From positions 5,824,001-5,888,000 of the forward strand of contig OY969763.1 of NCBI GenBank assembly GCA_963702845.1: a DNA stretch of 64,000 nt. The letters run 5' to 3'. Below, piece after piece: positions 4,298 to 31,900 of this stretch (positions are counted from its first letter, which is position 1; each line of letters begins with the position of its first letter). This DNA is from an uncultured Verrucomicrobiae bacterium. GTDB lineage: Bacteria > Verrucomicrobiota > Verrucomicrobiia > Limisphaerales > Palsa-1400. The notes beneath the pieces were generated by a model that saw only the letters and a list, made by a program, of their open reading frames with translations, was not told the DNA's origin and searched no databases. The position numbers and the translations under genes were made by a program.

Positions 4298-5863
4298 ATG
4301 GCGAGCGTGAAACGACTCGCGTGCCTTCTATTTGTCTGCGTCTTCGCGCTTCGAGTAAGCGCTCAACTCACCGCCAGCGACGTCACCAACATCCTTGCTC
4401 GCGCCGTCACGCGCGCCAGCGCCATTTCTTCTAACAGCGTCATCACCATCACCGTGATGGATCGCGAAGGTTGGGTGCTCGGCTTGTGGAGCGTCAATGG
4501 ATTGAGCCCGGCAGCCGATGTCGTCGGTAATGCCATTTCCAAAGCCGGCACCGCCGCTTTCCTCAGCAGCAAACAAAACGCCTTCAGCTCACGTTCCGCC
4601 GGTTTCATCATCCAGCAACATTTCCCGCCGCCAGTAAACAACAAACCGCCCGGCCCGCTCGTCGGCGTGGAATTCTCCAACCTGCCATTCTCCGACATCA
4701 ACAAGTTCAAAGCGCCCGGCAGCACCATCACATTCGGTTCCTCACCTGGCAACAGCATCGTCCCGATTCCATTCACCTCTCTCGCTGGTGTTCCCGGCGG
4801 CTTGCCGCTCTACAAAAGCAACATCCTGGTCGGCGCGATTGGTGTCGCCAACGCCCCCGCCGCATTTCGACACGAATCAAAGACGGCAGCATCCGCTGTG
4901 GTTATCCCGACCTTCCTGCCAAATCTCTATGCCTACAATCGCGATGAAGATATCGCATTCGCTGGTCAACCGGCTTTGCTCCGCGCGCAGAAATCTTCGG
5001 CTCGAAGCGTGTTCATCGACGGCATTCGCGTCCCTTACGTGAATAGCGGAACCAAACTCGCACCTTCTGTTCCGCTCGGCACCATTGGTGCGCAGTAGTC
5101 GCGCCATATAACATCATCGGAGCACCAACACCATTTCCATATCCAATCGTCACTATCGGAAACGTCACCAGCGAACTGCGCCAGCCAATCATCGGCGACC
5201 CCATTCCCGGAACAATCGATGGCCAACCTCGCCTGACCGCCACCGAAGTCACCAACATCCTCGCGCACGCCGCCACCCGCTCCGTATCACACTCGCGCCG
5301 GCATTCGTCTGCCGCGCGGATCGTCCGCGCCGTGTTCATCACCGTCGTCAACAATCCCAACGACCCCACTCAAGCCCCAACCGTCCTTGGAACCATTCCG
5401 GACTCCCGATGCAACCATGTTCAGTTGGGACGTCGCCATCCAAAAAGCCCGCACCGTCATCTACTACTCCACGCGAACCAATCTTTTCTCGCAGACCATC
5501 GCCTATTCCACTCGCGCCGTCGGCTTCCTCGCCCAAAGCCTGTACCCGCCGGGAATCATCCGCACCTCACCCGGCCCGTTCTATTGTGATCAGGAAAGAT
5601 TCTCCGGACTGCTTCCGGACGTGTCACTGGAACCGAGCTTGCCCAATGGAATTACAATATTTCCCGGCGGTTTTCCGCTCTATCGCAACGGCGTCTTGAT
5701 AGGAGCAATCGGCGTGAGCGGCGACGGCGTGGACCAGGACGACCTCATCAGTGCCGCCGGCGATTCCTTATTTCCAGCCGCCTCCAATCTCCGCGCCGAC
5801 CACTTCACCTTCCGCGGCACCCGTCTGCCCTACGCAAAATTCCCCCGCAACCCAGCGCTTTGA
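4298..5863 (+). CDS. Exported GlcG/HbpS-like heme-binding protein with two domains (frameshifted)
   Basis: Signal peptide; two copies of LTAxxVTNILA...KAxT...PGGxPLYxxxxLxGAIGV; SGDGVDQDD motif; pieces 4298..5098, about 5095..5400 and 5387..5863. Confidence 0.8.
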
Positions 5864-14189: not shown

Positions 14190-14312
14190 AAGGTAGGGAT
14201 GACGCGCTGCGTCGTCCTCTTTCCATCGTCAACTTTAACGACGGACGACGGGAGATTTGAACAAATTATTTTGTCGTTCGCTGCCGCGAACCGCGCGATC
14301 GTCCCTACCTTA
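14190..14312. repeat. REPIN-like pair; 14244..14312 is the left 69-bp inverted repeat of the terminase cassette
   Basis: aaggtagggatgacgcgctgcgtcgtcc ... gatcgtccctacctta; the reverse complement of 14244..14312 matches 16072..16140 at 61 of 69 positions (manual alignment). Confidence 0.85.
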
Positions 14313-16057
14313 GTACCAGCCTGGATACGGCGTTGGCTTGGGAATTGGGTCGTCCGTGTGATAGGACGACCACGTGCCGTCGTCGTTCATCACCGAAATG
14401 CCGATGCCGCCACCGCTCTTCGGCGCTTCACTCGCCAAGGCGCCAGCCCAGGCGATATCGCAATGGCTCGCCGGGTTGAGCGCGTTTTTGCCTTCGGCGA
14501 AATTCCATTTGTTGCCGTTGAACATTTTTTTGAGCGCATAGTAATCGCCGGCGATATCGTGTTCGCTGCTCGGGAACCGCTTTTGCGCGACGCTCAACTG
14601 GTTCATCAGGTTGAAACCAAGGTCATGCTTCTTGCTGGCGAAGTTCACCGATTTCCAGCGCGAACCGAATTTCTGCGCCGCTTCCCAACAGATCTGGCGG
14701 CCCAGACCGGTTTCGTCGCCGGCGCCTTTGAGCGAACCGGTCGTGTTCATGAAATAGAACAGGACGGTCTTGAGAAAGTGCCAGTCTTCGGTGCGACAGG
14801 TGAACAAGGCGCGAAGCCAATGTTCGTCGCCCTTTTTCTCGTCGATATAAATGACGGCCAGATCACCCGTGCCACTGGCGGCGACGTCGAAGCCGAGCCG
14901 GAACGTCGGCGTGCTGTGGATGGGATTGAAATCCAGCGATGGAAACTTCTTGCACAGGAACGCTTCGATGTTGTTTTCGCGTTCGCGCGCGCTCGACGGA
15001 TTGAACGCACCGAATTGTTGTTGGACTTCGTCCGCTTCGAGATGAACACGCTCGATCTTGTAATCGTGACGGCAACGTTCGATGGCACTCCACTCAACGA
15101 TGTGATTGGTGGCCGCCCCGAGCGGATTGCACATGTAGGCTTGTTGGAACACTTCCTCATCGCGCGCGCGTGCTTTGCAATCGGCCAGGAATTGATCCGC
15201 AGTAAACTTAGTCCCGCGCGATTTGTTGATGACTTCGACGAGGCCGTGGCCGATGGCGTCCTGGATGGTGACTTTGTAGTAGAGGTTCCAGGGGACGTTT
15301 GGGCGCACATCGGAGCGCGGACAGCCTTGTCCGCGCGTGTTCGTCGTCGCAGAAGCAGTGGAACCTTCGACAGTGTTCGATGTAGCAGGAACTAAAACAC
15401 GCGGACAAGGCTGTCCGCGCTCCGATGCTCCCACCGTCACCCTCGCCTCCTGCGCGAACTCATTAAACAACGTATCCTCCCCATCGTGACTCGACCACAC
15501 GGCGAGATCATAACCCCACGTCACGCGACCCTGCGCCGTTTCCCAGAGCAAACGCGCGTTGGGATGTTTGGCGAATTCATCGAGGCCGACGTCGCCGCCG
15601 TAAACAGCCATCGCCTGCGGATTGGCTGAGAACGCGATGATGCGCGAGCCGTTGTCGAATTTGATCACGCCGACTTTGACATCTTGCGTGAACGCCGACG
15701 GCCGGCCTTTCCATCCAACCGATTGACGCTCAGCGTCTCTTCCCCGTGCGTTTTGATCGTGCGAGTGAGATCGAAGACCTCCGCAAACTTGTAACATTGG
15801 CGGACGTATTCGAGCGCACTGGCATAATCTTTGGTCGCGAAAAGATAATCGCGATTCGGATGCAGCAATCGCTTGCGCACATTTTTAAATCCATCGGCAT
15901 AAGTCCAGCCGATGCGAACGGATTTCTCCGCGAGCGCCACGACTTGTTTGCCGGCGGCGTGTAGTGTTTCTTCACCCTCAATCCAGGCGATCTGATGTGG
16001 CATGAAATAGTCGGCCAATTTCACCGACCCAATATTTGGTTTCGTATTTATAATCAT
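14310..16057 (-). CDS. Mu gp28-like terminase large subunit; one frameshift near 15708-15710
   Basis: EKSVRIGWT Walker-A-like motif, GDVGLDEFA Walker B, FQQAYMCNP, nuclease motifs LGFDVA and HCDIAWAGALA; one extra A in a homopolymer joins the two ORFs (RLDGKGRPSAFTQD). Confidence 0.85.
15308..15427. repeat. In-frame REPIN-like element inside the terminase gene
   Basis: Perfect 28-bp inverted arms catcggagcgcggacagccttgtccgcg (15308..15335) and 15400..15427. Confidence 0.9.
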
Positions 16058-16071
16058 AATTTTCAACTTTC

Positions 16072-16140
16072 TAAGGTAGAGACGGTCGCGCGGTTCGCGG
16101 CAGCGAACATCAAAACAATTTGTTCAATTCTCACGCCGTC
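16072..16140 (+). repeat. Right 69-bp inverted repeat flanking the terminase gene
   Basis: taaggtagagacggtcgcgcggttcgcggcagcgaac...; GTAG head plus gttcgc/gcgaac hairpin. Confidence 0.85.
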
Positions 16141-16162
16141 TTCATTTTTTGCATTTTCAGAT

Positions 16163-16969
16163 TTAGTTAATGGTTTGTTGTTCGTTTATTGGTGTTTCGG
16201 TCGACGCAGCGGCGCCGTCCGTATTCTGATTTTGTGATGGCGCTGGCGCTGGCGCCGGACCGTCCAAAGCTTCAATGTGTTGGCGGCGATGGCGTCCCAA
16301 TCCCAACACTCGATCCACAATATCAACGACCGCCCGATGATCAGATTCATCCCCAAACGGCTTCTTCGGATCCCGCAACTTGAGTTCCTGCGCCTCCTCC
16401 CGTTCCGCCGACCGCCGATACTTCCGCGTCCGCAACGCTTCCCTGCTCAACTTCGGTACAAGCGATAACAACCGCACCAAATTGCGCGGATCCTTCTCAG
16501 AATTATCCCGGAGTTCCTGCGGTGTGAGATCAGAAAGCACGCCACCCACTCGCGCGGCGAATAATTTGACGATCAGATCAGGAATCTCCTCCGGTTCCGC
16601 CTTCGTCAGCAGATCGACAACACGGTCAGAATTCCCATTGAGAAGAGCGCTTCGCTCCTGCTCCTTCACCCAATCCCGATACCCACCCTGGGCCCAGCGC
16701 GAAATATTCTGCTTCGTCAACCCCTTGCCCTCATCGCCGAGCGTCTCAATGATCTTCTCATACTCCACCCCATCATCGATCCACTCATTGATGTCCTCGC
16801 GAACAGCCTTCGGCAACCGCGCAATCTTCCCATTGCGACGGTGACCACTCGCCCCCGGCACCGCATCAAGGTAGGGATCGCGCGCTGCGCGGTCCGCCTG
16901 CTGCTCGTCCGGCTCTCGCCCTTCGACTATCGACTTTCGACCCTCAAGTTCATTTATATTTTCATTCAT
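16163..16969 (-). CDS. DUF3486 / Mu gp27-like protein (putative terminase small subunit)
   Basis: RRNGKIARLPKAVREDINEWIDDGVEYEKI...LTKQNISRW HTH-like N-terminal domain; directly upstream of the gp28-like gene. Confidence 0.7.
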   Translation of the reverse strand: MNENINELEGRKSIVEGREPDEQQADRAARDPYLDAVPGASGHRRNGKIARLPKAVREDINEWIDDGVEYEKIIETLGDEGKGLTKQNISRWAQGGYRDWVKEQERSALLNGNSDRVVDLLTKAEPEEIPDLIVKLFAARVGGVLSDLTPQELRDNSEKDPRNLVRLLSLVPKLSREALRTRKYRRSAEREEAQELKLRDPKKPFGDESDHRAVVDIVDRVLGLGRHRRQHIEALDGPAPAPAPSQNQNTDGAAASTETPINEQQTIN

Positions 16970-17261
16970 GCCCCCATTTTGCCCCGCGCCTGAACGAAAA
17001 GCTTCTTAGTGAAACCGACCTTTTACTAGGAAAGTGATTTGCAAGGGCTTGCGACTGGTTTAGCCACGGATTGGACTTGAAGAAGCTTGCATCAATCGGG
17101 TGATGTGTGGTCGTACGAGAATCCGAAACGAAACGTTTTTCAAGTTTGGCCGAAAGACGTGCCTTAATTCGAAGGAGAGGCGAGACAAAAAAAGAAGAGG
17201 TATTGGACATCACAACAACTTGGAAAGAATCGGCTTTTACGAAGAAGAAATGCGATGTTGG

Positions 17262-18158
17262 TCAGCTGAAAAGCGGGACCAAATCGAGAGCGAACTCAAA
17301 ATCCTTCTTTACCGACTTAAAGATAGGGACCGGCTTAGATCTCTTTTGGTTGAGCGCAAGAATTTCCTCTTCATGAGGTTTGCTCATATCGCAGCCGACC
17401 GTGATAGAAACGAGCAAGTCGTCTACTCGCACACAGCGCTTTGGAACGGTCGCGACGCCGATTCGCCATTCCTTTTCGTGGTGCCAACATTGAGCCTTGC
17501 TCAGCAGAATCTTATCTCCGAAAGCACCCGGATTAGCAAAATCCATTTCGAGCGCGCTAAACTTCGGATAGACATCTAGGTAATTCGCGTGCTCGGCAAG
17601 GCATAGCAAATTCTCTGCTGCCCGTTTGTATTTTAAATAATAACCCCTATGGTTCGCACCATAGTAAGCAAAAAGGAGAATGTCATTGGGAATCGCCGAA
17701 AGCGACAGCACGCCGTACCTGTCAATACGCTCTTGCATCCGTCGCCAGTGATCGTCGCGCACATGTTCGTTATCAACGACGGTCGTTCCTTTAACTTTTT
17801 TGATAAGCGCCCACTTCTTCCGCTTCTTGATCCCGGGATATTGTCGGTCGAGAGCTTTACTAAAGTATTTTTTGATTTGGTCTTCCGTGCCTTCAAAACT
17901 GTATCTAACTTTCGAATCAAAGGGATCGTTGAACATCGCTGGACTAGCGAAGAAAACCTCGCCGCGAGCTATCCATGACGCCGAGTGTTCATCGTGAGGC
18001 CTATACTTATATAGGAATTCAGGAGTTGCATCGAACTCATCGGGAACTGCAGGGCTGATTAAGGGGCAGCCGGCGCAGTCCGACACAACCTGCGCCGTAT
18101 CTGATTTCAATTTCAGATATACGCGCTGTTTACATTGCGGACATTTGCCTATGACCAT
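17262..18158 (-). CDS. DUF2971 domain protein
   Basis: LYKYR, FASPAMFNDPFD, LFAYYGANHRG, KAQCWHHEKEWR motifs; N-terminal CxxC pairs. Confidence 0.8.
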   Translation of the reverse strand: MVIGKCPQCKQRVYLKLKSDTAQVVSDCAGCPLISPAVPDEFDATPEFLYKYRPHDEHSASWIARGEVFFASPAMFNDPFDSKVRYSFEGTEDQIKKYFSKALDRQYPGIKKRKKWALIKKVKGTTVVDNEHVRDDHWRRMQERIDRYGVLSLSAIPNDILLFAYYGANHRGYYLKYKRAAENLLCLAEHANYLDVYPKFSALEMDFANPGAFGDKILLSKAQCWHHEKEWRIGVATVPKRCVRVDDLLVSITVGCDMSKPHEEEILALNQKRSKPVPIFKSVKKDFEFALDLVPLFS

Positions 18159-18192
18159 ACTACGACGCAGCGGTTTCCATTAACTGCATCCT

Positions 18193-18732
18193 TCAATTTG
18201 CCTTTTCGCCATAATAGTGATTGCGAACCCTAGCTACCCAGTTTTGGAAAACTGAATCCAGGTCGTCAAGAGCCTGAACTCCTGCCGTGGGCATCGGCAT
18301 TTCGTGAACAAAAATTTCCGTTGTGCCCACACTGAAGATGCCACCCTCAACTCCTTTCTCGCGGAAGATCATAGTCGGGATGCCAGCGCTAAATAGAATG
18401 CCTGCTTCCAACTGATTCCACGGCGTGGGAAAACTAACAATTTCTTTTGTAGCTACCGCTTTAGAGCTTCCACGCTTCCACTCCCCGCCTTTGGCGCGAA
18501 ACTGCTCAAACCCGAGAATAATCCCGCCGGAACAATGCTTAACCATCCTTAGCACCTCTTTGAGCGGCACGTCATTCGGATAATCACTTCGACCGAGGGC
18601 TCGCCATTCAAGTTTATAGCGGCGCACTAAATCGAGTATCAACTTTGCGCTCGCCTCCTGCGCTGGGCTTAAATTGTCAGGACTTGGTGCTGACACGAAT
18701 ACTGGAATGCGCATTCTTGGAATATTCAGCAT
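18193..18732 (-). CDS. Small TIR-like or nucleoside-deoxyribosyltransferase-fold protein
   Basis: VFVSAP strand, CSGGIILGF, PTPWNQLEAG with a candidate catalytic Glu, IPTMIFRE. Confidence 0.55.
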   Translation of the reverse strand: MLNIPRMRIPVFVSAPSPDNLSPAQEASAKLILDLVRRYKLEWRALGRSDYPNDVPLKEVLRMVKHCSGGIILGFEQFRAKGGEWKRGSSKAVATKEIVSFPTPWNQLEAGILFSAGIPTMIFREKGVEGGIFSVGTTEIFVHEMPMPTAGVQALDDLDSVFQNWVARVRNHYYGEKAN

Positions 18733-18835
18733 AGGGAATCAGGAAATTACTCTTAGCACTATGTAATTTACAACCGAAATAGGCAGGACAGATATACTCC
18801 TTCGACGCTGTCGTGAAACTTCGCCTTTTGTGACT

Positions 18836-18940
18836 GCTTCAACCTTTCAGCGTTGGTAGTGAAATCGACGGTGCGCCCAGGGTAGCTCCCCGCATCCCTC
18901 CGCAACCCTGGGCTGGATGCTTCAATGTCCTTTCAGGATT
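18836..18940. repeat. Palindromic interspersed repeat
   Basis: cccagggt...accctggg arms flanked by two gcttcaa...ctttcag units. Confidence 0.5.
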
Positions 18941-19060
18941 TAGTGGGAACGTTGCGAACGGATGTTTTGATCTCGGGTTTTATTTTCAAGTCGTGGAACT
19001 CGACAACGATTGCCCACCAGCCTTGATCATCGTATGCGACTGCCGCGTAGTGACTCGCCA

Positions 19061-19160
19061 AGCGTTTGGAGTGCGTGCGGCTTGCCGCCGCTTTGGGATC
19101 GCGGGCTTCGATTAAGTTCGTATCCCAAAGCGGCAGCTCAGCTGCCGCACTCCATACGCT
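19061..19160. repeat. REPIN-like inverted repeat
   Basis: Arms agcgtttggagtgcg..gccgctttgggat and atcccaaagcggc..cgcactccatacgct. Confidence 0.75.
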
Positions 19161-19183
19161 TCGCGCCTTCCAAAACGCGTTCC

Positions 19184-20293
19184 TTATTTCTTTACCCCCA
19201 ACAAATAGCGCGCTACATCGGCGCCCGCCGGATCACCATCACTCGTGCGGCCTTTCTCGGTTTTTCGCAGACCGAGAACGTTCGTGCAATAAGTCGCAAA
19301 ACTCTGTTCCCGGTGGCACGGATAGAGCTTGGGCCGTTTGACGCTCGGCCGGATCGTTTTAAGCAGGTCCACATACGTCCAGTTGAAACGTTTCACCAAC
19401 GGCCACAGCGTGATCACCGCCGTGTCCACGTCTTCGTAATTCCACACCCGCGGCGTATCGGCGTCGAGCGTCGCAGCCATGGCGCGCTGTTTAGGCGAGT
19501 CGGGGTAATGTTCGACCGCCGCTTCGAACTGTGCCTGGTATCTCGCCTTCGTCTCGGCGTCAGCAGTGGCGATGTGATTTCGAACGAAAGCACCGGCAGC
19601 GAGATCCCGTTTCTCAGCATCCGGATCAAACATGGCAGGTTGGCAATACCACATCGCGTGCGTCTTCAGGTGAAGAATTGAGTCCAGCCATTCGCAAAAG
19701 TAAATGAGCGCGACGCGCGGGTCGCCAAAGCTGGGATGCATGATGAAGGGTTGCTCGATCACTGCTTGTGGTTTTAGCTGAACTTCGGTGGCGAAGTTCA
19801 TGACCGCTTCACGACAGATGCCAGCGAGAGGGTCGTCGAAGCTGGAGAAACGGAGAATATGTTGGAAGAAGGTGCGGGATTTTGTTTGGTCGAGGGCGGC
19901 CAGTTGAAGGATGAGTTGATCGCGCACGATCTCGTCCGCGCGGGAAGCGTCAGCGGACGACGCGGGACCGTTCGGTTGGCAAGCGCGCTCGTCGTTAGCT
20001 TCTGTCCGGCACAAGGCGTTGCCGATGATTTCGGCGAAGGCGCGTGCGGATTGTCCGGATTGAAGCAAACGGGTGCGCGCTACTTTTTTCTCGGCGTATT
20101 CCTTAGCGACCAAAACCGAGGCGCGTCCAATCCAACCCTGGATCATGAAGGCAGACATATAGAAGTTGTCCTGCTCAAGACGACAGAGTTCGTAGGCGTC
20201 CTCCATCGTTCCCATGAATGGTAAGACGAGGCGCGGAGTCGGTTCGTTGTTGTTTTGATTTTCGTTATTTTTATTTTCGTTTTTATTTTTCAT
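19184..20293 (-). CDS. Hypothetical protein, 369 aa
   Basis: Long ORF with genome-like codon usage and an Asn/Lys-rich N-terminus; no family recognised. Confidence 0.75.
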   Translation of the reverse strand: MKNKNENKNNENQNNNEPTPRLVLPFMGTMEDAYELCRLEQDNFYMSAFMIQGWIGRASVLVAKEYAEKKVARTRLLQSGQSARAFAEIIGNALCRTEANDERACQPNGPASSADASRADEIVRDQLILQLAALDQTKSRTFFQHILRFSSFDDPLAGICREAVMNFATEVQLKPQAVIEQPFIMHPSFGDPRVALIYFCEWLDSILHLKTHAMWYCQPAMFDPDAEKRDLAAGAFVRNHIATADAETKARYQAQFEAAVEHYPDSPKQRAMAATLDADTPRVWNYEDVDTAVITLWPLVKRFNWTYVDLLKTIRPSVKRPKLYPCHREQSFATYCTNVLGLRKTEKGRTSDGDPAGADVARYLLGVKK

Positions 20294-20338: not shown

Positions 20339-20651
20339 ATTTTTTTCCCGGAAAAAGATGTCGCCTCTATCTACTTGATACCGAGCGAATTAAACAAAAA
20401 CGCCGCTTTTTGGCGTAAAATTTTTCAGGTAGGGCGGGCCGGCATCCGCGGTTAGCGGTGCCATCGACCAATTTGTTCTAACTCTCCGCGCCCGCCCGCG
20501 CCCGACCGCCCGCCGTCCGCGCCCGCCGCCATGCGCGCCGAGAATTTCTTTCTTAATAAAAACCTCAATCCACTAAGAAGCTTTTATTCCAGCGCCGTAG
20601 TAACCTCGCCGCATGTGTGAATTTGAATTAATCGCGCAGCCGGCGACCGCC

Positions 20652-20785
20652 ACAAAAAAGGCGAGTGCGACTGACTGCGACTGCCACCGCGACTGGGGTG
20701 CGACTGCACTCCAATTTGTCGCGCCTGGTCGCAACCAGTCACGCCCAGTAACACCCAGTCGCACTAACTTTTTTCGGTTTTTTTC
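20652..20785. repeat. Convergent arrays of A-tract plus roughly 10-bp tgcgact repeats
   Basis: aaaaaag then tgcgactgac tgcgactgcc..; opposite strand aaaaaagttag tgcgactggg tgttactggg cgtgactggt tgcgaccagg. Confidence 0.6.
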
Positions 20786-20918
20786 GTATCGCAGACTTCC
20801 GAGTCTGCTGTGTCGTATGGCGAGGCCGACGTTCGGCTTTCCAAACCTGCAGGGCTTCCGTTACACACCTGCCGACTTGGAAGTCGGCGATACGGCAGGT
20901 TTGGAAACCTGCGATACG
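20786..20918. repeat. Composite palindromic repeat
   Basis: Hairpins gcagacttccgagtctgc, gccgacttggaagtcggc and gcaggtttggaaacctgc, bounded by gtatcgcag...ctgcgatac. Confidence 0.7.
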
Positions 20919-21052
20919 GGTTCGGCATCAGCGTCGGGCAGTCCTCGGTTGTTACAGGTGCGGAGGTTGTTGCTATTCCTCCATGCCGTTGTTACACTCC
21001 GCGAGTTGGACGTGGAATTGGCCACGACAGCGAAAAACAACAACGCCCTGCC

Positions 21053-28956: not shown

Positions 28957-31900
28957 ATGGAAAAATCTACTGTAAGAATTATACGCAACCTACTGTGTGC
29001 CATGCTCCTGCTTTTTTGCGGGACGATGAATGGTCAGACGAACTGCGCTAGTCAACCATCTGGATTGGTGAATTGGTGGAAAGGTGATTCCAATGCGAAT
29101 GACAGTATCGGCACGAGCGGCGGTACGGTGACCGGAACTGTTTCGTATAGCACGGGTGAAGTGGGCAGCGCATTTGCGTTTGTGAACGGCAAGGTCAACT
29201 TCGGAACCAACACGGCAAACTTTGGCACCAATAGTTTTACGGTGGAATTTTGGCTAAAGACTACGGCGCAGGTGTCGGAGAGCTTTGAAATGGCTGTTAT
29301 GGAAAAGCGACCGGCTTGTAATGCGACTCTGTCGTTTTGGGGGATGCGAATGGGTGGGGCGGGGACCGGCGGCAAGCTGATTGTGGAAGCATCGTCGAAT
29401 GCCGCGCAGAATCAGCAGAGCATAATGGCCAACAAGCTGATCAATGACGGAGTGTGGCATCACGTGGCTTTTACGCGTTTCTTCGGAACGATGTCGTTGT
29501 ATCTGGACGGAACGCTGAACATTTCACAAACGAACCCGGCGACAGTGTATCTCAGTAACGCGGTCGGTTTTGTGGTCGGCCAAGGTGTGTGCAGTTGTTG
29601 TTCGGGAACACAGCCTTTTTCCGGGTTTATGGACGAATTGTCGATCTATAACCGCGCGCTGAGCGCTGCGGAGATTTTGTCTGTATATAATGCAGGCACT
29701 TACGGCAAATGCAGTGGTTCCGCGCCGTTCATCACGCAACAACCAACGAGCATTACGGCGCAGACAAACTCGATGGTAGGTTTCTCTGTGCTGGCGACGG
29801 GCACTTTGCCCCTTGGCTATCAGTGGAGTTTTAATTCGAGCCCGATTTCGGGAGCAACTACTTCGAGTTTGACGGTTACCAATGTTCAGGTGGCAAATGC
29901 AGGGTCGTACTCGGTTTTTATCACGAACGCGTTTGGCTCGGCCCAAAGTTCGAATGCGATTTTGACGGTGACAACGGGGAGTGGTGGTGGCGGCGGTGGT
30001 ACGTCGACAAATTGTGCTACGATTTCGGGCCTGACGCATTGGTGGCAAGCGGAAGGAAATGCCCATGACTCGGTCGGAACGAGCGCCGGTACTGCCAGCA
30101 CAGGAATATCATATACGTCAGGCAAGGTTGGTCAGAGTTTTAATTTTGATGGAACTTCCGGCGAAGTGGATATGGATACGAGCACGGGAAATTTTCGCAC
30201 GAACGATTTCACGGTCGAGTTTTGGATGCAGACGTCGTCGTCGGCAAACATGGCAGTCATCGCGAAGCGGGAAGCTTGTGACTTAGATCCCTCTGGCTGG
30301 GACATCGTTATGGGGTATGCCAACGGCGTCCAATACAATGCTGGAACAATCGGCTTTGAAGTCTTTGACCCGACCGAGGCGGATGGACCGGTTGTGCCAA
30401 ATACGACCATTAATGACGGTCTGTGGCACCACGTCGCGCTGACGCGTGCCGGCACAAGTGTGTCCATGTACCTGGACGGCACAATGAGGACAAACATCAC
30501 CATGGCGAGCCTGATCGATTTCACCAACGCCAACCCCTTTCAACTCGGTCGGAACGTTTGTGAGGGTGCCGCCGGAATTCAGCCGTATCAGGGGTTGATG
30601 GATGAAATTTCGATATACAACCGTGCGCTGAGTGCTTCGGAAATTTTGGCGATTTACAACGCTGACACCTTCGGGAAATGCGGTTCAAGCGGTGGCGGTT
30701 CCGCGCCAGTGATCACCCAGCAACCGACGAGCATCACGGCGCAGACGAACTCGATGGCGGGTTTCTCTGTGCTGGCGACGGGCACTTTGCCCCTTACCTA
30801 CCAGTGGAGTTTTAATTCCAGCACAATTTCCGGAGCAACCAATTCGAGTCTGACCATCAACCCTGTTCAATTGACGAATGCCGGGACGTACTCGGTTTTC
30901 GTTACCAACGCGTTCGGTTCGGCTCAAAGTTCCAACGCGATTTTGACAGTGACGACCGGTGGTGGTGGAACGTCAACAAACTGCGCTAGCATCCCGGGCT
31001 TGGTGAATTGGTGGCAAGCGGAGAGCAACGCCCTCGATTCGATCGGTACGAAAAATGGAACTCTTTCTTCGGGAGTGTCTTATTCGTCGGGCAAAGTCGG
31101 CCAGAGTTTTAGTTTCGGCGGAACCGGCGGGGTGACGATGGATACGAGCACGGGAAATTTTCGGACTAACGACTTCACGGTCGAGTTTTGGTTGATGACA
31201 TCGTCATCGCAAATCATGTCGATCATGTCCAAACGACAAGTGTGCAATTTAAATCCCGCCGGCTGGGACATCCTGACGGGGTATGCCAACGGTGTCACCT
31301 ACGCCGCCGGAACGATTGGCATTGAAGTTTTTGACTCCAGCGGCGCGTGGGGACCGGTCGTGCCAAATGTCACGATCAACGATGGACTGTGGCACCACTT
31401 TGCGATGACGCGCGCCGGTAAACTCGTGACCCTTTATCTCGACGGCACACAGAGGACAAACGTCACAACGTCCGGCCTGATCGATTTCACCAACGCCTAC
31501 CCATTCGAACTCGGCTTGGACGTTTGTGGAATGCAGCCTTATCAGGGCAATCTAGATGAAGTGGCGATCTTTAACCGGGCGCTGTCGTTAAGCGAAATCC
31601 AATCGATTTACAGCTCGGGTTATTTGGGCAAGTGTCCCCCTCCGCCGACTGGTCCATCGATTGTGACGCAACCGACGAATGTCGTTGTGGCGGTCGGCAG
31701 CACCTTATCGTTAGGCGTGGGAGCGACGGGGACGGCACCGCTGACGTATAACTGGATTTTCAATGCAACGAATGTCTATGTCACGGCTAGCTCGCCTTTG
31801 ATGATCACGAATGTGCAACTGACGAATGCGGGACCCTATTATGTGGTGGTCACAAATAATTATGGGTCGGCAACCAGTTCGAACGCGGTTTTGGTGGTGG

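Follow-up and report, generated by a model that had tools for sequence, protein, structure and literature searches.

Two 69-bp GTAG repeats in inverted orientation bracket an orphan gene for a terminase large subunit (terL) in a bacterial chromosome, and the reading that we favor, with a probability of about 0.7, is that they landed separately, moved in trans by a RAYT, at an orphan terS-terL pair with a tendency to accumulate repeats. The pair is probably not the two ends of a mobile cassette. The stretch analyzed, called the window below, comprises 64 kb of the genome under study (G000:C1:5824001-5888000), and coordinates given without a prefix refer to it. REP biology as such is known, and the module-bearing repeats appear to be a variant of it. 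The bracketing geometry is a by-product on this reading, and a false lead is removed.

The bracketed terL gene and its inverted repeats

The enclosed gene, terL (14310..16057, minus strand), belongs to an orphan subfamily of terminase large subunits and matched Pfam Terminase_6N over the cut-off; its nuclease domain aligned to PDB 5m1q, and an intact paralog in the same genome matched phrog_2 and phrog_5909. TerL is predicted to retain residues that we take to be the Walker B motif and the three RNase H-like acidic residues. In the assembly the gene is split into an N-terminal part (16057-15665) and a C-terminal part (15797-14310), with one base missing between 15711 and 15710 compared with the paralog and two homologues; because the essential gene alaS is split likewise by a frameshift in the same assembly (L008:1-2209), an assembly error is plausible. 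Upstream lies terS (16163..16969, minus strand), a Mu gp27-like small terminase gene assigned by phrog_426 and by a Pfam Phage_Mu_Gp27 match that stayed below the cut-off (E=1e-4). A conserved control element (16950..17053, minus strand) stands upstream of terS-terL and was 92% identical in metagenome contig L226, 94% in contig C657 of genome G002, and 84% over 55 nt at the paralog. The two genes resemble the Mu gp27/gp28-like pair (phrog_426 with phrog_2 or phrog_5909) in the terS-terL order and in the ATPase and RNase H-like motifs, but differ from it in having no adjacent portal or capsid gene, in that most homologous loci are followed by host genes, and in a linker inflated by repeats. In the window, terL is followed by rluB, with neither portal nor capsid alongside.

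The sequence-only reading had reported a 69-bp inverted repeat around terL, and the repeat is real: the reverse complement of 14244-14312 matched 16072-16140 at 61 of 69 positions, and a repeat search returned the terL-bracketing pair (70 nt, 89%) as the longest inverted repeat within the window. Its further statements were also reproduced, namely that the TAA stop of terL (14312-14310) constitutes the first three bases of the left repeat, that the right repeat sits just upstream of the start codon (14 nt from the ATG at 16057), and that both 69-mers carry a GTAG head and a GTTCGC/GCGAAC hairpin. The AT-rich tail that it called non-palindromic folds as a second hairpin of 4-5 bp. As for the bracketing that it called exact, terL is indeed enclosed by the repeats, but its partner terS lies outside the right one, which splits the conserved control element-terS-terL unit between terS and terL.

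The left repeat (14243..14312, minus strand) is composed of the TAA stop and a GTAG REP unit of family A (REP-A), in which a 42-nt two-hairpin module (14251..14292, minus strand) takes the place of the plain REP loop TG. It forms the inner half of a REP dimer, the outer partner of which is a plain REP-A recognized by sequence (14193..14217, plus strand) 26 nt further out, and the segment 14186-14314 folds as one structure (-32.7 kcal/mol, z -5.6). Between terS and terL, the right repeat (16072..16141, plus strand) is a REP-A unit with a different stem variant and a module of its own (16092..16133, plus strand). Its probable outer partner is a degenerate REP-A (16199..16224, minus strand), read through in the 3' end of terS, that escaped the three-mismatch REP pattern and was identified by eye. 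terL is bordered by REP dimers, the left one clear and the right one with its partner degenerate.

RAYT genes (NF047646) were found at two positions in G000, C1:4562782 over the cut-off and C1:3771382 below it; both matches lie in REP-A-type dimers, and at the second of them the 3' dimer includes a 69-mer. The dimer-gene-dimer layout with heads next to the gene, which had been pointed out as typical of RAYT loci, is found at the genome's own RAYT locus (C1:4562.6-4563.4 kb) just as at terL. REPtrons, as the available text of PMC3333891 and PMC8266576 describes them, share this layout, the position of the heads, and homology that starts at C|T, where the homology between the left and right repeats also begins; unlike in REPtrons, the enclosed gene here encodes a terminase and not a Y1 HUH enzyme, and its homologues lack the layout. 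Searches with the enclosed gene gave terminase matches only, and the Y1_Tnp and NF047646 matches lay elsewhere.

Left and right 69-mers differed at 8 of 67 columns, and the left one differed from three distant copies at 3, 5, and 6 positions, the value of 3 belonging to the copy at C1:3540 kb; the two are not mutually closest copies, and these ends are not specific to one element. Three of the eight left-right differences fall in the outer stem, and because this stem is self-complementary within each copy, no net crossover has mixed the two repeats. Both begin with the 5-nt prefix CTAAG, and since just 2 of the 36 plain REP-A units have TAAG in front of them, one of the two may be a local copy of the other. 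If eight copies were scattered uniformly, two would fall within 2 kb of each other with a p of ~0.02, so the juxtaposition exceeds uniform chance. Module copies also cluster, with five pairs within 5 kb versus 0.63 expected (p=5e-4), or three versus 0.5 expected (p=0.014) when the window's copies were left out.

A GTAG REP with a 42-nt loop module

The 69-mer is a dispersed composite repeat, a GTAG REP plus a 42-nt module. Its assignment to the GTAG REPs held, with GTAG at the foot of a palindromic stem: each 69-mer is an ordinary 26-nt GTAG REP whose loop TG is swapped for 42 nt, and the unit measures 26 nt in plain REP-A, inside the 20-40 nt typical of GTAG REPs, and 66 nt in the module-bearing form, which makes the latter a variant. 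The sequence-only reading had said that occurrence at many unrelated loci, together with homologues free of flanking repeats, would count against it, and this is largely what was observed. BLAST retrieved eight near-full copies genome-wide, and the six outside the window include five at loci without a terminase, but the sixth precedes the paralogous terL, and three of the eight full copies adjoin a terL gene. The neighbors of the copies outside the window include a prs-like gene and a RAYT gene. The 36 plain REP-A units, found with one pattern, are dispersed and mostly extragenic, and dimers are present among them.

The module is common to at least four REP families of one genus, three of them besides REP-A, and turned up in no other genus. 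Module deletion followed by a search with the flanks led to plain units of four REP families bearing TG, TGC, GAG, or TGAC/TAAC instead, in a test of 15 copies, 5 of which gave no clear plain unit. Collected by hand and with divergent types included, module copies number 28 in G000, 6 in G002, and 1 in G001, whereas a module pattern gave 16 matches in G000, none in 400 other genomes of the order, none in viral contigs, and one in genome contigs. The core AAAAYAAYTTGTTC is nearly invariant. In 29 aligned copies the module hairpins were 90% paired, with 14 two-sided changes versus 5.4 in shuffles, but two-sided variation is confined to three pairs, among related copies of few subtypes. An Rfam scan of six loci gave five matches, none on the 69-mer, and hence no Rfam family for the module; a search for module halves apart from each other, as from a donor or a larger element, found none. 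Weak module HMM matches at C1:140754 and C1:4290148 were no better than a reversed-genome control and were dropped; the module did not fit an attC site or a LexA box when compared by eye with their consensuses, and a sequencing artefact was ruled out by its presence in two other assemblies.

Several further elements were seen in passing. A third, divergent module-bearing REP (20428..20508, plus strand) lies in the window's island, and two direct-orientation module copies (C1:1812541 and 1812934) enclose a 76-aa ORF near a lone terS. A 790-bp non-coding element with internal inverted repeats occurs in two copies (C1:140355-141150 and 4289755-4290547, 91%), one of which precedes phage-like genes.

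Compared with the GTAG REPs, BIMEs, and REPINs in the available text of Di Nocera et al. (2013, PMC3733652), the repeats described here are alike in the GTAG foot, the short stem, the dispersed copies, the inverted dimers, the heads that supply stop codons, and the in-frame intragenic copies; they are unlike them in the 66-nt unit, where a 42-nt two-hairpin module replaces 2-4 nt. The same text already reports REP heads as stop-codon suppliers, places REPs mostly downstream of genes, and describes GTAG REPs as abundant in a verrucomicrobium, O. terrae. A search of the openly accessible literature turned up nothing on terminases bracketed by or laden with REPs, nor on the module, and the novelty of the module is stated relative to PMC3733652, PMC3333891, and PMC8266576, whose additional files may list related families. 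Since the module passes from one REP loop to another and one of its copies neighbors a RAYT gene, it offers a substrate for studying how REPs spread and diversify.

Homologous terminase loci and the history of terL

The metagenome set consisted of the best 80 of 142 relatives plus one viral locus, 81 loci in all. None of the 32 homologous loci with both flanks in this set had bracketing inverted repeats, and three had short direct matches; the 42-nt module was found at none of the 81. Gene ends were likewise free of inverted pairs at the six remaining terL loci of G000 and on five contigs from the same genus, and the terL loci of G001 (where the gene is cut), G021, G040, and G043 showed none among the three to five longest pairs displayed. 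The idea that homologues share the flanking inverted repeats thus failed at all 32 loci as well as at the paralog, the orthologue, and the other G000 loci. The paralog (C1:4753884), with an intact terL of 594 aa, has one 69-mer only, upstream and in the opposite orientation, and a REP from a different family provides its stop. L226 and L176, two contigs of one metagenome that contain the nearest orthologue, probably represent a single gene interrupted at its hairpin. Control element (92%), terS (77%), and terL (83-84%) are all retained there, at a different place in the chromosome and with no 69-mer on either flank, and agreement with the window stops at the C|T of the terL stop codon.

The control element-terS-terL unit precedes rluB in the window and a different gene in G001 and L176, and at the paralog it neighbors argS; it is this unit that is conserved and that changes locus. 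When an empty site was looked for, the syntenic G002 contig ended inside terS, and G001 had other genes before rluB. A portal gene was near 2 of the 81 homologous loci, many of which are on short contigs, and the relatives beside portal genes were viral contig L247 and G021. Pfam searches of 34 of the 46 downstream ORFs at 22 long-flank loci returned host families except on the viral contig, with no match for 19. A 3' flank was available for 40 metagenomic homologues, and inspection by eye showed no repeat at the stop in many of them.

Window and paralog terL are sisters in a tree that was a quick one only, while their terS are only 30% alike and the paralog terS groups with the G040 terS. These relationships show that terL DNA has been exchanged between loci without terS. 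The homology with the paralog spans terL from ATG to stop, but its dS falls along the gene from 1.9 through 1.1 to 0.27, with the break at the linker insert, and because of this stepwise course piecemeal conversion fits better than one hop. The dN/dS of terL was 0.02-0.09 versus the paralog and 0.11-0.16 versus G040 and G001; two other terL paralog pairs gave weaker values of 0.38 and 0.51, and one pair was saturated. Two candidate histories were rejected. A chimeric terS, swapped between distant subfamilies, was dropped as the window terS groups with the paralog's clade, and derivation from the paralog by circular permutation of terL together with its repeat was dropped as two other copies resemble the left repeat more than the paralog's copy does.

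The surrounding island has features of its own. Three cargo ORFs of 298, 179, and 369 aa lie at 17262-20293, between terS and a non-coding element; none has a Pfam or NCBIfam match, and the first has a match in phrog_1762. In G002:C657 the 369-aa gene and terS are retained, and the cargo that separates them differs. The non-coding element (20547-20790) contains short phased repeats, is shared with the paralog region (C1:4746157-4746420), has many copies in G001 and G002, and possibly delimits the island at its far end. The island also contains two further REP-type dimers, from other families, at 19056-19165 and 20817-20928.

Repeats at terminase genes and the origin of the bracket

With a de novo mask, a repeat block was found within 200 bp of 15 of 22 terS/terL genes versus 245 of 3401 others, and blocks on both sides were found at 5 of 22 versus 20 of 3401; only 1 of these 20 non-terminase genes was bracketed by an inverted pair. 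A REP head was scored at the stop of 4 of 8 terL genes versus 58 of 3410 other genes, in a test that missed the window's own copy, and by eye REP heads abut the terL stops, within 10 nt, in 5 of 8. REPs are strongly and non-randomly associated with terL ends, and the families differ from gene to gene: terL at C1:2594969 has outward-facing heads of two other families at both ends. The same CTAA-GGTAG fusion as in window terL also ends an ordinary gene, at C1:4146599. Six of the 28 module copies lie at terminase cassettes, and a count of 19 versus 1.4 at cassettes is circular, its patterns having been picked partly there. terS genes without a terL partner also have repeats nearby.

Repeats also enter the reading frames. 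A plain REP-A lies in frame in the 5' region of terS (16871..16895, plus strand; sequence and repeat search), and a REP-type dimer of another family lies in frame in the variable TerL linker (15308..15427, z -8.3), which measures 48 aa in the window versus 3-4 aa in the short form. The repeat mask, built of 16-mers, gave no in-CDS enrichment, with internal blocks in 0 of 22 terminase genes versus 17 of 3401 others, and it missed even this known insert. The linker was measurable in 74 of the 81 homologues, with 17 short and 57 expanded, 54 of the latter by a multiple of three. Clustering sorted the inserts into 47 distinct groups, of which 44 preserve the frame (p=5e-18). Strong folding was seen in 12 of the 47, and many combine hairpins with short tandem repeats in a mosaic. 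Because 44 of 47 inserts keep the frame, the phage-free terL is still translated and under selection, which argues for a retained function rather than debris for orphan terL in host chromosomes, as far as sequence can tell. That a gene under purifying selection carries repeat DNA in frame is also known from the palindromic elements of Rickettsia and from intragenic REPs, which the available text of PMC3733652 cites, but here dozens of unrelated repeats have entered one linker of one gene family.

The separate landing of the two 69-mers could proceed as follows. The available text of PMC8266576 and PMC3333891 describes TnpA-REP as needing GTAG, cutting at C|T, and performing strand transfer, with cleavage possible more than 400 nt from the resident REP. 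Such an enzyme would insert REPs at C|T sites near resident REPs and so create local clusters such as those that the module copies form. Selection for an intact TerL would keep insertions that fall outside the frame, or in frame in the one linker, so that surviving ones would pile up at the start, stop, and linker of terL. A gene caught between two heads-out dimers would then be bracketed by an inverted pair, and at terL the module happens to be present in both of the inner repeats.

Several other origins of the bracket were weighed against this one. The sequence-only reading had proposed terL as a passenger moved by REP ends, which is not supported by a dispersed repeat and 0 of 32 bracketed homologues. 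In its sharper form, terL would be a non-autonomous REPtron, cut by a RAYT in trans at the C|T of the GTAG heads and moved between terS sites. The likeness to the genome's RAYT locus, repeat homology starting at C|T, the disagreement of the terL and terS trees, paralog homology from ATG to stop, the heads abutting 5 of 8 terL stops, and the capture of whole genes by BIMEs proposed in the available text of PMC3333891 all speak for it; we nevertheless judge it quite unlikely, because homologues are not bracketed, the nearest orthologue lacks 69-mers, the paralog has a single, reversed one, dS changes stepwise as in conversion, and terS and the control element belong to the unit that changes locus. 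That the pair acts as an invertible switch, turning terL around relative to terS, is hardly credible: recombination between 70-nt inverted repeats at 89% would be possible, but terL stands in normal orientation behind terS, each repeat has its own matched outer stem with no net crossover inside the module, and the scanned neighboring ORFs included no recombinase. Pure chance, by which two uniformly placed copies of a common repeat fell around terL, agrees with the dispersal of the 69-mer and is just as implausible given the p of ~0.02 for the pair, the clustering of the module, and its six copies at terminase cassettes.

Two further readings give the terminase or its transcript a part. TerS/TerL might nick or cut its own locus in a pac-like manner, with REP or short-repeat DNA patching the ends or single strands; the apparently conserved nuclease residues and ATPase motifs, the large repeat enrichment, and a linker that took 47 different inserts are compatible with this, but repeats also lie near terS without a terL partner, although TerL could act from another locus, and many 3'-flanked homologues have no repeat at the stop, and we give it a low probability. 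The related suggestion of the sequence-only reading, that TerL was co-opted for a repeat-associated function, finds nothing in its favor, the terminase motifs and the terS partner being kept. It is very unlikely that selection kept the REPs for the hairpins that they form in RNA, with a terminator or stabilizer after the stop and an attenuator between terS and terL serving to insulate or tune a terL that may be toxic. Heads within 10 nt of terL stops, the mostly downstream position of REPs in the available text of PMC3733652, and two-sided changes of the first module hairpin in 14 cells versus 5.4 in shuffles would suit it, but the family, orientation, and presence of the repeats differ between paralog and orthologue, in-frame inserts bring no such benefit, and the covariation stems from few related subtypes. 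A coupling, in which TerL cuts its own locus and draws in REP strands, the RAYT shuttles REP-ended terL, and the module rides along as an enzyme-less insertion element, is doubtful; if true, it would link phage packaging enzymes to REP mobility.

Phage head genes in G000 follow a steep gradient, with about 14 terS, 8 terL, 2 portals, 1 capsid, and 1 protease, and most terS-terL pairs stand alone among housekeeping genes. Elsewhere in the genome, a 28-nt inverted pair of another family (L004:1638-1665 and 5781-5808; C1:2593638-2597808) surrounds 4.1 kb that hold terS, terL, and one more ORF, one arm being half of a dimer. In a scrambled head-gene cluster, a 128-nt inverted repeat (L002:9020-9147 and 15240-15367, 84%) encloses a head-tail adaptor gene, a portal, terL, gcvH, and a terS-like gene. 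An Acido-Lenti-1 RNA scored above the gathering score at L073:4353-4399, and tandem repeats of ~970 bp (76-83%) occupy 29716-31423 of the window, in a long gene.
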